64,000 nt of DNA from Malacoraja senta (Eukaryota), in the NCBI GenBank assembly GCA_038087875.1, contig CM075993.1, positions 8,372,001 through 8,436,000 of the forward strand, written 5' to 3'. The position numbers were made by a program, and so were the translations under genes. Positions 5,621 to 23,887 of the stretch are shown piece after piece. The number at the start of each line of letters is the position of its first letter. Position 1 is the first letter of the stretch. Under the pieces are notes generated by a model. That model was not told where the DNA came from. It saw only the letters and a list, made by a program, of their open reading frames with translations, and did no database searches.

Positions 5621-6110
5621 GGGCGGCCCGGTGACGCAGCGGTAGAGTTTCTACCTGAATACGCAAGTGACCCGTGTTCGATCCTGACTACAGATGCTGT
5701 CTGTATGGAGTTTGTTTGAACATGTGGCTTTTTCCCGGGGCTCCAGTTTCCTCCCACACTCCAAAGATGTACAGGTTTGTAGGTTTAAGAAGGGACTGCA
5801 GATGCTGGACAATCGAAGGTAGACAAAAATGCTGGAGAAACTCAGCGGGTGAGGCAGCATCTATGGAGCGAAGGAAATAGGCGACATTTCGGGTCGAGAC
5901 CCTTCGCTCCATAGATGCTGCCTCACCCGCTGAGTTTCTCCAGCATTTTTGTCTACCCCAGGTTTGTAGGTTAATTTGCCTTTGGTAAAAATTGTAAATT
6001 GTCTCCAATGTGTATGATAGTGCTAGTGGACAGGGTAATCGCTAGTCGATGCGGGATTGGTGGGCCGAAATGGCTTGTTTCTGCGCTGTATCTCTAAACT
6101 AAACTAAACT
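5621..6110 (+). mobile_element. tRNA-derived HE1/V-SINE, interrupted by a pLTR fold-back insertion (5786-5958)
   Basis: A/B-box-like head (GGTGACGCAGCGG..GTTCGATCC), V-domain core CCAGTTTCCTCCCACACTCCAAAGA, (CTAAA)n tail. The insertion has TSD CAGGTTTGTAGGTT. Confidence 0.8.
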
Positions 6111-6700: not shown

Positions 6701-7259
6701 GGGAGGTCTGTAAGCCGCAGGTCTTCACGGCCGCAGTGGGCCTCGCTGGTTGCTCCTCCAGCACCAAGAGTTGTTGCGGTAAAACCCCTGTCTCACGGTG
6801 CGAGCTGACCCACGAGGTACCCCGAGCTTAAAACAAATTTAACTCGTGGTAATCACTCACGATTAACGTAGTGGGAACGTCGGAACTCGTGGACGCAACT
6901 TAGCGACTCGTGGCGCTAATGGCAGGTACCCGTGACACTTGTTAACTCTTGAAAAAGTTCAAACATGTTTAAAGTTTTCCACGAGTAAAATTTCCTCTTG
7001 AGGTTAAAAATGGAAACATTTAAACTCGTTGTAAGAACGTGGTGGCCCTTGAGTTAAACTTAGTGACTCTTGAGTCTACCGTGTTGGATTAACGTTTCGA
7101 GTGCGATCTTTCATCAGAGCCCCGTTTAATTAATAAATCCAGCCACGGTATTTTGACATCAGTTAGAATTTCTTCCGGAATATGATCTATTTTGCTTTAA
7201 TTCATAAAATGAGTGAGGAAGAGTCACTGGAGTTTGAAGAAGCGGTGAGAAACCACAGC

Positions 7260-9235
7260 CAGTCCGCCACGGAGAACATGCCAGATTATAAACCAGACCA
7301 AGCCACCACTCCAGAACCCAGTACTCAGCCACCAACGGCAGCGGTGGCACCCAGGAGAAGAACCAGTGGCGGCAGGAGGTCCCGACGTTGAAGCAGCCCA
7401 GAAAAGTTGATCCCAAGCATTGGGCTGAGTATCTGGAAAGAGCCAGGAAGAACGCCGCAGCCAAGCCAACAACAACAATGCGAGGAATCACAGATAAACC
7501 TCAGGGGGGTTCCCAGGCATCTGGAGGGAAGGGAAGCGTCGGGAGACGACCAGGATAGCCCAGTGGACGAGGAATTCATCGCGGTGACCACCAGGCGGCC
7601 ACGAGAGGTTCCAATCACATTGGTATCTCCTCGCATAAGGCCAAAGGATCCCCATGCGAATGGAGCGCCAGTGGTGGCACAGTCTCCAATGCTGGTACAG
7701 ACCACACCACCTAACGAAAGGGAGACAACGTTTCCAATGAGCCAGGTGTCCACATACCCCAGTCTGCATCCTGTGCCTACAGATTCCATTGATAAAAGGA
7801 GACCAGGAGGTGTCAAAGCCCCAACTGTAACTCCCCAACAACCCAATGCTGAAGGGCAAATGACGTTCTCCGATGATATTTTGGGTCTTCATGTTACCCA
7901 TGCACCTACCCCAGCCACAATGCGGATGCCCACGCCAGAGGCAGATATAATCCCACCAGGAGAACATACAACACAAGTGGAGGTCTCTAAAGGCGGGAGC
8001 GTGACCATCAGTGGCGGCCACCATCACCCTATGACCACCAAAGACCATGGTCATCCAGTCCCGCTTGAGCCCAGGCAGAAAGCCACCGACTCTCCACCCC
8101 CCTTGCTATCCACCACTGTCAGCCAGCGGAGCCACACTGTCACCGACGCCTCAGTTTCCAAACCAAGGCTTTGGGACGAAGACGGAAACAGCCATACAGG
8201 CGTCGATACGGCCGGCCAGGTGTTAACAAACACTGGTATAGCATTGTGAGACCGGTTCGGCGGAGACATGGCGGGTCGGCACTGACACAGTCACATCGCA
8301 ACTCCGCTATCACCGAGGTCCCACTGCGACTCCCGTTCCCACTGTCCCTTCCCACACAGACTGAGATAGCACCGATGGAGAACGCCGGAGTTCCCCCTCA
8401 GCCACAGATCCAGTTTGGCAGAGGTCACTTGGAGGAAGACGATCGGGCAATCAGTCCCGATAGGAACACACAAGCCCCCACTTGGAAAACCACGACACGA
8501 CCCCCGGCGACCAGTCCAGGCACCAGCCCGAACCCTACCTTACTAGCTATCAAGAGACCTACAGAAAGTCCACCCCAAATTATCTACTCAACATATACTC
8601 CAACCACTATCCAGCCTACCAGCCAGCCCCACAAGACTGTTCGTGGAAAGATCCCTTGGGATAGGCTTTTCGGGTTCAATAGTCAAAGGGATGTACTCCG
8701 GAGGCTTCGGAAACCCATGAAGGGTACTGGGCCTAAAATTGTTACTCAAAGGACGTTCGTTCTGACCAAGCCGACTCTCCAAGATGTGGTGACCTCGGTG
8801 CCAATGGTAGAACCCACGGTATTCCCTCTCACCACCCCACGTACCCAAGACACCACCACCAGACAAACCACGCGGATTCCCATTACCTCTGCCGGCGAGA
8901 TTACAAGGACCATCCTCCCATCTACTGTTGAAACGGCGGCGGTCACTACAGAGACCACCCCTATCACAGTCACCACTACCCGGGCAACCTTCACCACCAG
9001 ACAACGGGCGTTCTTCCGGTGCAGGAGACCGGGAAAGCCCTTCGGTAGAACCAAAAGCCGAGCGTTCTTTTCGAGGCCCACCTCCGGACGGAATCGCTCG
9101 GTGGCGTTGGCGGCTGAGAACAGGAAGACAATACTAGACATGACGAAAACTTGATTGGCCGTGACTCCGACTGTCCCAGTAACCACCAAAGCGCCTCTTC
9201 CTGTTGCAGTAGAGACCAGCACTTGGAACATTGGT
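7260..9235 (+). pseudogene. IGSF10: Frameshifted fragment of the IGSF10 central Ser/Thr/Pro-rich region
   Basis: Collinear motifs match recalled IGSF10: VDPKHWAEYLERARKN (7406-7453; cf. IDPQHWAALLEKAKKN), EASGDD..DEEF (cf. DSSG..HEEF), KHWYSIVR (8228; cf. RHRYSIFR), KIPWDRLF (8648; cf. KIPWQQNF). About 3 frame changes; no LRR or Ig domains. Confidence 0.75.
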
Positions 9236-9639
9236 GCGCACTGGAGACGTTACCCTTACTCCAGCTTAAATTTATTACGTCATTATTAACGGCCAGTATT
9301 TGAAAGGTTATCCTTTAAATGAAATAGTTATTGCCATTCCTAAAGGCTTTTGCGAAAACTTAAACCGTGGTTTATTATTAAGATACTTGAGAATGTTGTT
9401 TCATTAACAAATGCTCCTGCAGTTACTGAGATCAATTTAAAAACACAACAGTGCCTTCAGTGGATTTATTTCTAAAAAAAAACATTTATTCATAAAAAGA
9501 TGTACAGGATATGCAATACACCAATGCCATGTGTAATTTCAAAAATAATCTTTCTCCTGAATAAAAATATGTATAAAACAAAAAACGTGCAAAATCTTTT
9601 CATAGATTCTCAGTGGTTAATGCCTTCGGTATTTTTCTA

Positions 9640-9862
9640 AAATAAACTTTACTCAGAATAAGAAATGTGCACAAAACAAAAACAGTGCAATGCATTATCA
9701 GTGTCTATACATTCAATAGTGTCATACTTAGGACTGTTTCCATCTATATTTAAACTAAACTCTCTTGTCGCTATGTGCCCCTTGGGGTGATATCCCTACC
9801 CTTGTCTGACGGGTGTCCCCATTTCAATATCCTGCAGCGGAAGGGCCATAGACTGTGGTCCA
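9640..9862 (-). mobile_element. Probable L1/Tx1-type LINE 3' fragment inside the TIR element
   Basis: CCTGCAGCGGAAGGGCCATAGACTGTGG resembles recalled chondrichthyan Tx1-like 3' ends; AT-rich antisense tail. Confidence 0.35.
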
Positions 9863-10226
9863 AATGAACTGCACGTAAATGCAATGCAGATACAAATATT
9901 CTGTGTCTGTCTGCCATTTCCGTCTTTAAGGCTTCCATGTCACAATTGCCAGTTCAATGAGTAATTCGGCTTAATTCAGATTTTATATGCGGATGCGAAT
10001 AGTTTAATTATAAAGTTTAAATTCTATTAAATATGTTACAGGGAAAAACGTCCAGCAATGAAAAGACATCCCTGTATTTAAATAGCGCCCATCACAAACT
10101 CAGGAGGTTCCAACGTCTATTACAGTAAAGGAAGTACAGTGAACGTACTTGGATAAACATAATGTTGAGCATGAATATTGTTTTGTTTAAAAACGGTGGT
10201 AACAAGGCTTGTAAATATGCAAAGGC

Positions 10227-10316
10227 AGACAAAAAATGCTGGAGAAACTCAGCGGGTGAGGCAGCACCTACGGAGAGAAGAGATATGCGACGTTTCGGGT
10301 CGAAACCCTTCTTCAG
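10227..10316 (-). repeat. Penelope pLTR fragment with intact minimal hammerhead core
   Basis: Minus strand 10316-10289 = CTGAAGA A GGGT TTCG ACCC GAAA CG TC. Confidence 0.75.
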
Positions 10317-10708
10317 TAACACTGTTCCTTATTAAAACAGACCTTCATTCACGTTTGGCTCAAGAGTAACTCAGGAGAGGAATTTGGTAACTCGGGAGAC
10401 GAACTTGGAACATCGCAGAAATGACAAGTTAACGGCAAACCTAGTCATACCCGTGGGAACTCGGTTAAACGCTTGATCATACACTTGGAATCTCGTACAC
10501 AACCACGAGTCTTTCACTTGAGGTACCTCGTGGGTCAACTCGCACCGTGAGACAGGGCTTTTAGTTTTCTGGTACCAGGAGTTGGAAAATTGATTGATTT
10601 TTACTTTAGATTAGTTTAGAGATACAGCGTGGAAACAGGCCATCCGGCCCACCGACCAGCGATCCTCGCACACTAACACTATCCTACTCAGACTGGGGAC
10701 AACATTCA

Positions 10709-12346
10709 CAGTGCCCTCCATAATGTTTGGGACAAAGACCCATAATTTATTTATTTGCCTCTGTGCCCCACAATTTGAGATTTGTAATTTAAAAAATCAC
10801 ATGTGGATAAAGTGCACATTGTCAGATTTTATTAAAGGCCATTTTAATATATTTTGGTTTCACCATGTAGAAATTACAGCTGTGTTTATACATAGTTCAC
10901 CCATTTCAGGGCACCATAAAGTTTGGGACACGTCTTCACAAGCGTTTATAATTGCTCAGGTGTGTTTAATTGCCTCCTTAATGCAGATATAAGAGATCTC
11001 TCAACACCAAGTCTTTCCATCACTTTTGGAAACTTGTATTGCTGTTTATCAACATGAGGACTATAGTTGTGCCAATGAAAGTCAAAGAAGCCATTATGAG
11101 ACTGAGAAACAAGAATAAAACTGTTTGAGACATCAGCCAAACCGTAGGCTTACCAAAATCAACTGTTTGGAACATCATTAAGAAGAAAGAGAGCACTTGT
11201 GAGCTTACTAATTGCAAAGGGACTGGCAGGCCAAGGAAGACCTCCACAGCTGATGACAGAAGAATTCTCTCTATAATAAAGAAAAAAGACCAAACACCTG
11301 TCCGACAGATCAGAAACACTCTTCAGGAGTCAGGTGTGGATTTGTCAATGACTACTGTTCGCAGAAGACTTCATCAACAGAAATACAGAGGCTACACTGC
11401 AAGATGCAAACCACTGGTTAGCCGCATAAATAGAATGGCCGGGTTACAGTTTGCCAAGAAGTACTTAAAAGAGCATCCACAGTTCTGGAAAGAGGTTTTG
11501 TGGACAGATGAGATGAAGATTAACTTATATCAGAGTGATGGCAAGAGCAAAGTATGGAGGAGAGAAGGAACTGCCCAAGATCCAAAGCATACCACCTCAT
11601 CTGTGAAACACGGTGGTGGGGGTGTTATGGCCTGGGCATGTATGGCTGCTGAAGGTACCAGCTCACTTATCTTCATTGATGATACAACTGCTGATGGTAG
11701 TAGCATAATGAATTCTGAAGTGTATAGACACATCCTATCTGCTCAAGTTCAAACAAATGCCTCAAAACTCATTGGCCGGCGGTTCATTCTACAGCAAGAC
11801 AATGATCCCAAACATACTGCTAAAGCAACAAAGGAGTTTTTCAAAGCTAAAAAATGGTAAATTCTTGAGTGGCCAAGTCAATCACCCGATCTGAACCCAA
11901 TTGAGCATGCCTTTTATATGCTGAAGAGAAAACTGAAGGGGACTAGCCCCCAAAACAAGCATAAGCTAAAGATGGCTGCAATACAGGCCTGGCAGAGCAT
12001 CACCAGAGAAGACACCCAGCAACTGGTGATGTCCATAAATCGCAGACTTCAAGCAGTCATTGCATGCAAAGATATGCAACAAAATACTAAACATGACTAC
12101 TTTCATTTACATGACATTGTTGTGTCGCAAACATTATGATGCCCTGAAATGGGGAGACTACGTATAAACACTGCTGAAATTTCTACATGGTGAAACCAAA
12201 ATGTTTAAAATTGGCCTTTATTAAAATCTGACAATGTGCACTTTAACCACATGTGATTTTTTTTCTATTGCAAATCTCAAATTGTGGAGTACAGAGGCAA
12301 ATTTTAAATGCCTGGGTCTTTGTCCCAGGCATTATGGAGGGCCCTG
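10709..12346 (+). mobile_element. Tc1-family DNA transposon with ~220 bp IR/DR-type terminal inverted repeats
   Basis: Left CAGTGCCCTCCATAATGTTTGGGACAAAGACC; right GGTCTTTGTCCCAGGCATTATGGAGGGCCCTG. Inner direct repeats at ~10909 and ~12122. Right flank is TA; left flank is CA (mutated). Confidence 0.93.
11054..12090 (+). pseudogene. Inactivated Tc1 DD34E transposase
   Basis: GRPRKT, WTDE, KHGGG, QQDNDPKH and WPSQSPDLNPIE motifs, with D-E spacing of 34. Stops at ~11126 and 11858, and a 1-nt deletion near the C-terminus (..ACK[G]YATKY*). Confidence 0.92.
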
Positions 12347-22464: not shown

Positions 22465-23244
22465 ATGTCCTTAAGTAGCAGCAGTTCAGCTGGGAAAGGT
22501 GTGGATTCGAATGCTGTTGATGCCTACGACAGTGGGGATGAGTGGGATATCGGAGTTGGGAATTTAATCATTGACTTGGACGCAGACTTGGAAAAGGACC
22601 AGCAGAAAATGGAGATGTCGGGATCGAAAGATGGGAGCATCCCAGTGCCAAGCGCCGTGGCAGCTCTACCAGAGAATATCAAGTTTGTCACTCCAGTTCA
22701 AGCACCGCAGGCCAAGGAGAGCAAATCGAAGGCTAAAAGGAGCAAAAATGCAAAGGAAGGAAGTAAATCTGTGTCTGCTGCTTCTCTCTACACTGTGGGA
22801 GAATCAGGAAATGGCAAGAAAGAAATGCAGGCACGGTCTGCAGAAATTGTGAATCCCAGTGGGCTGGGGTCATCTAACAGCACGTCCAAAGGATCAGAAA
22901 AAGGTCCAAAGACTGTTCGGAATGGAGCCGGATCAAAAAAGGACAAAGAGGGTGGATCCAGCAAAAGCAAAAAGGATAAAAGTGAGAGCAGTGGAGGTGT
23001 GCAGCTGCCTCCTGGGAACGATTCCAACGCTGCACAACAACTCGGGCTGGGGTCAGGGCCAAAGGGCAGCTCGTTTGAATGTGCTCCAAGCATAAGCTGC
23101 CCAGACGCGGCTGCCGTCCAAGTGCTGGATTTGGGAAACGCACCACTGGATAGCAACAGCATTTCCAACCTGCTGGGAATTAAACCCGAAACGGAGGAGG
23201 TCGACAGTGAGTGTCGACCACTGAAGAAGGTCAAGACAGAGAAG
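22465..23244 (+). CDS. ZNF609: Zinc finger protein 609, first coding exon (260 codons, phase-0 donor); the rest of the gene lies beyond the window
   Basis: MSLSS..KGVD..YDSGDEWDIGVGNLIIDLDADLEKDQQKMEMSGSK..NIKFVTPV..ECRPLKKVKTEK matches the ZNF609 N-terminus better than ZNF608. Donor AAG|GTAAGA at 23244/23245. Confidence 0.95.
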
Positions 23245-23887
23245 GTAAGAACAGTGGCTGTTCATGTTCCCTTGTAAACCCAGATCCGGCAATGAGATTA
23301 GTGGTTTCTCATCAGGACTTGAGAGATCTCTCGTGTTTCATGAAGTGGCGAGTCAATTGATTCATCAGGCAATCAATGATCCTTTTAACAATCTACTGAA
23401 AGATCAGTACTCGTGAGTTGGATGGCTGGAAAGGCTGATCAGAGCCTTATTATATTTATTGTATTTTTGCTGAGTTAATTTGCACATGTTTTTGTTTGAC
23501 TCTCTACGCTTATGACATCATTAAGGGAATAGGCTGAGAGGTAATCATTGGTGCATGGGAGCTGAATTAATGTCAGTCGAGTGAACTCATTAACTGGATG
23601 GTGAGTACTTAGCTCACTTACATTGTCTGCCAGAATGCCATTTACCTGCCTGGCTGACATCTGTGTTCGACTATGCTCAAGGAGAAATAATCGGGAACTA
23701 TTTGAATGTGCGGATAGTTAGAGGGGAGAAACAGAAGTTGTCTTTATGGTGAGCATTGCTGTTTGTAAAAGTTTAACCATTCAGTTAGTCCAGAGAGCTT
23801 GTGCCCCACTGATTGCCATAGTGTTCGACGGTAAGCCCACCTAATATCTCTAAATGAGGACGGTATACATTGTATTGATGTCGTTGG

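Follow-up and report, generated by a model that had tools for sequence, protein, structure and literature searches.

A transposon of the PIF/Harbinger type, belonging to a group of copies here called subfamily A, very probably swapped its interior for a piece of an IGSF10 exon, spread with this cargo through the genome of the skate Malacoraja senta, and handed part of it to a second group, subfamily B. One copy of the chimera lies in the window, that is, the whole 64,000-nucleotide stretch of DNA that was analysed. From the letters of the window alone, a preliminary description had proposed a Pack-type element carrying captured IGSF10 sequence, a proposal borne out by an intact parent exon, many dispersed copies and cargo-free sister elements. 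Comparison of copies sets the limits of the element proper at 6783-10560 (3,778 bp). Its parts and flanks, and an exon of the host gene, are as follows.

6780..6782, plus strand: left target-site triplet, TAA (TTA on the right)
6783..6826, plus strand: left terminal inverted repeat (TIR), 44 nt
6783..7083, plus strand: left transposon arm bearing an array of subterminal motifs, assigned to subfamily A by comparison of copies
7084..7210, plus strand: AT-rich remnant of an older interior, continuing into a 1,944-bp core in sister elements
7211..9256, plus strand: captured IGSF10 exon piece, Thr/Pro-rich (2,077 bp in the parent)
9257..10221, plus strand: older AT-rich interior common to cargo-free sisters, from sister alignment and contig depth
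10222..10317, plus strand: piece of an abundant short interspersed repeat, presumably SINE-like, with copies at 5816-5957 and at many unrelated loci
10318..10560, plus strand: right transposon arm, likewise carrying subterminal motifs (left limit approximate, set by diagnostic sites that begin at 10318)
10517..10560, minus strand: right TIR, from the inverted-arm match
10561..10563, plus strand: right target-site triplet, TTA, from flank comparison
22465..23247, plus strand: first coding exon of ZNF609, which matches ZNF609-like sequences of sharks and rays at 90%

Element structure and host gene

The inverted arms (6780-6826 and 10517-10563) span 47 nt including the 3-bp flanks and are 91% complementary, in agreement with the TIRs of about 40 bp first described. 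Subterminal motifs of the ACTC[G/T]TG type number 12 on the left and 7 on the right when counted with a loose pattern and no chance control. The element is a non-autonomous TIR element: as the preliminary description had also stated, no transposase-sized open reading frame was found inside it. A Tc1 open reading frame at 11129-11860 lies outside the element.

At the window copy the flanking triplets, TAA and TTA, mismatch at the central base. Both ends were found in 27 of the 32 elements examined, the other 5 lacking one end, and 17 of these 27 carry a perfect 3-bp target duplication (16 TWA and 1 TGA). Mismatched TAA/TTA flanks occur in three elements, the window copy and two others, the triplets of two further elements differ by another single base, and in five the ends are damaged. 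The preliminary description had read the flanks as TA or TWA; the TWA reading matches the 3-bp family rule, and the TA reading arose because one base is mismatched in the window copy. A 3-bp TWA duplication is given as a signature of PIF/Harbinger in the portion of the source drawn on here (PMC13668399). The target duplication, on which membership rests, points to PIF/Harbinger for this element family.

In the same sense as ZNF609, the element lies between a GC-rich island near 1001-2000 and the gene's first coding exon. It had been placed in intron 1 of ZNF609; its position upstream of the first coding exon holds, and intron 1 would be an interpretation of that position.

The IGSF10 donor exon and the capture junctions

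A genome search with the element returned one place that matches its middle only, C8:22187251-22189327 on the minus strand, on a chromosome other than that of the window copy. Window positions 7211-9256 are 96.05% identical to this stretch (2,046 bp versus 2,077 bp), and the parent IGSF10 exon is intact there. The parent stretch falls within an open frame of 1,413 codons with Ig domains, and further Ig exons follow. The N-terminal 440 aa of this frame find IGSF10 of Amblyraja radiata as the top match (96%), then other rays and sharks. The best 120 of 341 protein matches are IGSF10, Ig-like or unnamed, together with one hemicentin-1-like protein, and none of these is named MXRA5. Judged by these matches, the donor is IGSF10 and not MXRA5. 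In a tblastn search against the window with E up to 1e-3, 55 of the 120 listed homologues match, that of Amblyraja over residues 703-1376, and the cargo corresponds to about residues 690-1376 of Amblyraja IGSF10. Relative to the open frame, the window copy's cargo carries three frameshifting deletions and one stop. A homologue search with the 361-aa cargo frame gave 0 of 5,844 candidates, these being proteins of 633-2,000 aa (IGSF10 is longer), and Pfam returned no family for either of two cargo frames.

The capture of about 2 kb of IGSF10 coding sequence had been claimed from the window, and the genome confirms it, as it does the view that the cargo is a piece of one large exon: 7211-9256 matches the middle of such an exon, and the search for the parent, suggested as a check, found it intact within one open frame. 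The cargo had been located correctly at 7260-9235; its actual extent is wider. All four IGSF10 motifs that had been named are present and spread over three frames as described, of which only DP..W (43 of the 120 homologues) and KIPW (60 of 120) are widely conserved. The pattern KHWYSIVR occurs in none of the 120, Amblyraja reading KPWYSIVR, and the EASG motif is too short to be informative.

Cargo-free sister elements are in identical register with the window copy up to 7211 and again from 9255. Between these points lies an AT-rich core, either 1,944-1,950 bp long or shortened by deletion to 514-1,203 bp. Because the sisters hold the core in exact register, the IGSF10 piece replaced an older core and was not simply inserted. 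Microhomology at the junctions amounts to 1 bp (G) and 2 bp (CT), which would fit template switching; matches this short are common by chance and count as weak evidence. The same two junctions recur among the copies, and it is on them, not on trees, that a single capture rests, because neither tree supports it: in the tree of the right part no single branch sets the full-length IGSF10 copies apart (4 changes), and none of the branches in the cargo tree is starred.

The older interior (7084..7210 and 9257..10221) was itself probably host DNA captured earlier. This is suggested by contig depth in public sequencing runs of four organisms, A to D (4 of 24 listed runs), whose contigs were compared with the window; such depth is a contrast within a run and not a copy number. 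In organisms B, C and D the pieces 7087-7211, 9255-9574 and 9570-10256 have about the depth of unique flank (e.g., 47-54 versus 44-58, X3), whereas in organism A their depth is 194-397 versus 2-5 for the flank. The element arms, by contrast, have very high depth in each of the four runs. The older interior looks non-coding. A source for its core was not found in the skate genome among all 32 candidates, most of which lie at known arm positions. Of the five without a full arm on record, C2, C14 and C3 were rejected for the truncated left arms present there, and C1:373.6 Mb was rejected since its sequence runs on to a right TIR; C4468, where a LINE-like repeat interrupts upstream, is left as a candidate.

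The same runs bear on the time of capture. Organisms B and D each have a contig of 4.6-4.7 kb whose match covers exactly 7211-9256 and which continues past both ends, and in organism C two contigs end their match at the same 7211 and 9256 limits. Because IGSF10 is unbroken at the breakpoints in these three organisms, the capture postdates their splits. All three lack two 9-bp stretches of the window, at which the parent has no indel relative to the window. Contigs of organism A, whose run is possibly the assembly's own sample, cross both junction regions, reaching 56 letters beyond on the right and 25 on the left. One contig of organism B tracks the left flank as far as 6780 and diverges there, with no joint among those listed, so that an empty orthologous site in that organism is only hinted at.

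Spread, hand-off and competing explanations

The genome contains 22 cargo-bearing elements besides the parent, none of them on the donor chromosome, which supplies the copy count that had been proposed as a check. All 13 candidate places for the 5' part of the cargo are the parent and 12 elements, and all 23 for the 3' part are the parent and 22. Exact patterns recover the left junction 12 times and the right junction 20 times, with reversed controls at 0. Two pairs, L012/L013 and L016/L018, have common flanks and are segmental duplicates, so the copies represent 20 independent sites, which have differing flanks and their own target triplets. Mean divergence among full copies is 2.75%, and the window copy differs from L010, 0.84 Mb away on C17, by 1.7%. 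These two have 25-bp and 3-bp deletions in common and are probably the product of a local hop; a further local pair, L005/L008, is found on C1. The element is a multicopy PIF/Harbinger-type family, not a single insertion.

At ten of the cargo-bearing loci the cargo consists of its 3' 915 bp alone, with arms of subfamily B around an interior from subfamily A. Subfamily B has the same left arm at about 92% identity and diverges after 7083. Two cargo-free B elements are separated from 22 A elements by 27 diagnostic sites. At 25 of these, all in the arms, the B allele predominates among the 8 independent short copies (at one arm site a third letter dominates), and both interior sites show the A allele. 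In the right-part tree, from which L013 and L018 are omitted as duplicates, the short copies group with the cargo-free B elements at 98/98 (bootstrap not settled). The right junction of the short copies is also that of the full copies. The diagnostic sites, with B arms and A interior, thus show acquisition by subfamily B; by a route that we infer, a B element copied a portion of an A element with IGSF10 cargo and spread afterwards.

The course of events may be reconstructed from a non-autonomous subfamily A element of about 3.68 kb, the AT-rich interior already inside it. During break repair or at a stalled fork, synthesis could have switched from the element to the IGSF10 exon and back to the element, so that 2,077 bp of coding sequence took the place of 1,944 bp of interior, a swap seen directly with its junctions. 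Template switching in gap repair or at a stalled fork is among the models in the part of Tan et al. 2021 used here (PMC8277862). The chimera retained both ends and would have been mobilised in trans by a Harbinger transposase with a Myb-like partner; it reached 12 sites soon after capture, where distinct TWA duplications are seen. Early spread is indicated because, of the 20 amino-acid differences fixed between parent and copies, 15 are changes on the parent side (4 changed in the element stem and 1 could not be assigned). As the diagnostic sites show, an element of subfamily B later copied the 3' 915 bp of cargo and adjoining interior from an A copy, and the B chimera spread to 10 more loci.

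Other routes to the same arrangement can be weighed against this evidence. It is very improbable that paired elements flanked the IGSF10 piece and were mobilised with it as one unit, through the neighbour excision of Pack-CACTA or Pack-TYPE elements. A model of this kind exists for plant Pack-PIF elements in the portion of PMC8903248 drawn on here, and local hopping is seen in the skate (L001/L010; L005/L008 on C1). However, the donor exon is one open frame and no element arm matches were found in the 40 kb around it, which argues against paired-element capture. Moreover, with the sister register kept and the core removed, two insertions in a conserved exon and two deletions would be needed. 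An IGSF10 transcript, entering the element as a retrocopy or by RNA-templated repair before the transposon spread, would be a decidedly unlikely source. The sense orientation of the cargo is compatible with a cDNA template, and because the piece lies within one exon and has no intron, DNA and cDNA templates would look alike; the claim of DNA-level transduplication therefore stands as to transduplication, with "DNA-level" not proven. Yet the cargo is without poly-A and without a target duplication of its own at the junctions, both of its ends lie inside the exon, and 1,944 bp of element were lost at the same time. The chance that segmental duplication or misassembly produced the copies instead of transposition is negligible. 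Although L012/L013 and L016/L018 are indeed segmental duplicates, the other 20 sites differ in flanks and triplets, the copies differ by about 2.8%, contigs of organism A (perhaps the assembly's own sample) cross the junction regions, and the distinct target duplications rule this explanation out.

Retention of the cargo for a function, either as a secreted-protein fragment begun at a junction ATG or as small RNAs regulating IGSF10, is unlikely. The A and T that end the remnant (7084..7210) form an ATG (7209-7211) in frame with IGSF10 in all 12 full copies, one copy (L003, on contig C2801) retains an open frame of 698 codons, and the window copy lies in sense within ZNF609. However, 11 of the 12 full copies are disabled, the frame of the window copy ending after 60 codons, and a hand tally of about 3 disabling changes per copy gives a probability of about 0.4 that one or more of 12 copies stay intact. 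Private substitutions in the 20 independent copies comprise 204 nonsynonymous changes, 9 stops and 84 synonymous changes, where the observed spectrum predicts 202, 10 and 85 (omega across all copies 1.02, P=0.95), a result that reveals neither purifying nor positive selection on the captured frame. The private changes of L003 (20 nonsynonymous and 5 synonymous) likewise do not support selection on that copy. The cargo therefore appears to behave as a passenger that decays neutrally, and the interior swap by a subfamily A element, with later hand-off to subfamily B, is the account that we favour.

The wider family and known systems

A TIR pattern with TWA flank has 3,082 matches genome-wide and 0 for a reversed control, so the TIR, whose genome-wide search had been suggested earlier, is not single-copy. 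Among 72 ends taken from the first 100 listed, 18 pairs could be formed, which delimit elements of 1,795-5,075 bp. Interiors vary across the TIR family, because the piece 7088-7210 has only 61 candidates, compared with 741 for a right interior piece. Candidates for a Harbinger-type transposase (PF13359) number 534, of which at least 150 are scored matches, many with open frames of 440-480 aa. An autonomous partner would be expected to share these TIRs and to encode a DDE transposase and a Myb/SANT protein. None was found; the single autonomous element inspected ends in a similar but distinct sequence and is flanked by TTAA. L038, a broken Harbinger transposase that lies 15 kb away from the donor exon, was set aside as a candidate: it has no similarity to the arms of this element, so a link is not supported.

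A broader reading, tentative and to our minds slightly short of an even chance, is that about 1,500 Harbinger-type elements of 1.8-5 kb have the same ends and many different host pieces, serially captured and traded between subfamilies, as in the Pack system of rice. It is based on the 3,082 ends, the 18 pairs, the 61 candidates and the flank-level depth of the older interior in three organisms. If it is true, IGSF10 would be one of many amplified gene fragments in the first large-scale Pack family of a vertebrate, with captures young enough for their mechanism to be read.

Plant-style shuffling of gene fragments is rarely reported in vertebrates. Because the parent, the cargo-free precursor, the chimera and the second-generation hand-off coexist in one skate genome at 95-99% identity, the steps of capture can be read directly. 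The family indicates that a vertebrate DNA transposon can amplify a 2 kb coding exon more than twenty-fold, and its copies can give rise to false gene models and mis-mapped IGSF10 reads. Its importance is limited in that the cargo, as far as substitution patterns tell, appears functionless. A literature search on IGSF10 with transposon, on Rajidae or skate Harbinger and on Pack-TIRs after 2021 found no report of this element; repeat databases (Repbase, Dfam) may already name the TIR family.

Pack-TIRs in animals have been surveyed systematically in one study, that of Tan et al. 2021 (PMC8277862), and the following refers to the portion of that survey drawn on here. Its criteria are a non-TE interior of 100-5,000 bp and a parent with at least 90% identity and 80-120% of the length, without TE flanks; intron-less retrocopies of multi-exon genes are set aside, a point on which the skate piece, confined to one exon and without poly-A, offers no intron to judge by. 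In the skate, 2,046 bp lie between arms common to cargo-free sisters, and the C8 parent, at the identity and length given above, has no flanking arms within 40 kb. Identical junctions recur with distinct target duplications (12 left, 20 right). The criteria tested place the element among multicopy Pack-TIRs, a kind already known. The survey lists 4 multicopy cases among 370 Pack-TIRs in 100 animal genomes and none from elephant shark; its captures have a median length of 224 bp. It concludes that almost all Pack-TIRs exist as one copy, are short, and arise without transposition. None of its 21 PIF-Harbinger rows exceeds about 805 bp, and one multicopy example consists of 3 copies with 291 bp of UTR. 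Length alone is no record, as long captures are known there (a 3,585-bp human case and a 2,020-bp frog row).

The skate family resembles the animal multicopy Pack-TIRs of that portion (Pack-hAT-N8_XT and Ssk-FB4) in having host sequence between TIR arms, an unlinked parent, 1-2 bp of microhomology, distinct target duplications and copies far from the parent. What sets it apart are its 22 copies and a capture of 2,077 bp that is coding exon throughout, although the survey may hold larger or higher-copy cases. The portion considered reports no cargo-free precursor or orthologous element for its multicopy vertebrate cases. Furthermore, Ssk-FB4 is described there as positively selected, whereas the skate copies are neutral. 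With plant Pack-PIF and Pack-MULE elements, as treated in the part of Gisby and Catoni 2022 used here (PMC8903248), the family has in common the superfamily signature, common ends with differing interiors, and local insertions. Unlike plant Pack-PIF elements, it resides in a vertebrate host, and its junctions favour replacement of the interior over excision of neighbours. A parallel to the hand-off is found in the maize Mutator clades, where, in the portion of Hunter et al. 2023 considered (PMC10401008), interiors move between elements with divergent TIRs and the product still transposes. The maize exchange involves the transposon genes mudra and mudrb, whereas the skate exchange involves a captured host exon.

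Captured IGSF10 sequence and its parent exon

In one full copy of the captured exon piece (L003; G000:C2801:234553-238349, minus strand), a 698-codon frame is still open from the start codon formed at the left arm–cargo joint through the IGSF10 piece, which is compatible with chance. Over roughly 690 codons, the parent IGSF10 exon on G000:C8 has acquired 15 amino-acid changes since the capture, which suggests that the Thr/Pro-rich region of IGSF10 is under weak constraint. The transposon copies record an older IGSF10 allele.

Harbinger transposases in the host genome

Among the Harbinger transposase sequences of the host genome are these two:

L038 4390-5481 (G000:C8): broken transposase, near or within IGSF10, separated from the donor exon by some 15 kb
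L051 2848-4281, minus strand: transposase with an open 478-codon frame

The broken transposase is 84% identical in DNA to the intact one and, when compared with the arms of the Pack element, showed no similarity to them. The score of the L051 transposase is equalled at many places in the genome, suggesting that it belongs to a family with recent activity.

Ends, interiors and neighbouring repeats

Two elements of the sister subfamily B have a mosaic interior, made up of 1 kb of repeat-rich sequence and two pieces of the subfamily-A core:

L049 1503-3221
L050 1638-3346

In three elements (the window copy, L002 and L045), the ends are intact, yet one flank reads TAA and the other TTA; this is more such cases than divergence of a few percent would lead one to expect. 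Two further features lie in the window:

5818-5957: perfect inverted repeat, 57-nt arms, 26-nt spacer
11129-11860, plus strand: Tc1/mariner transposase fragment (PF01498, E 7.6e-16), flanks from about 10714

The former comprises two copies of one common short repeat placed head-to-head; the latter adjoins the Pack element on its right side and is unrelated to it.
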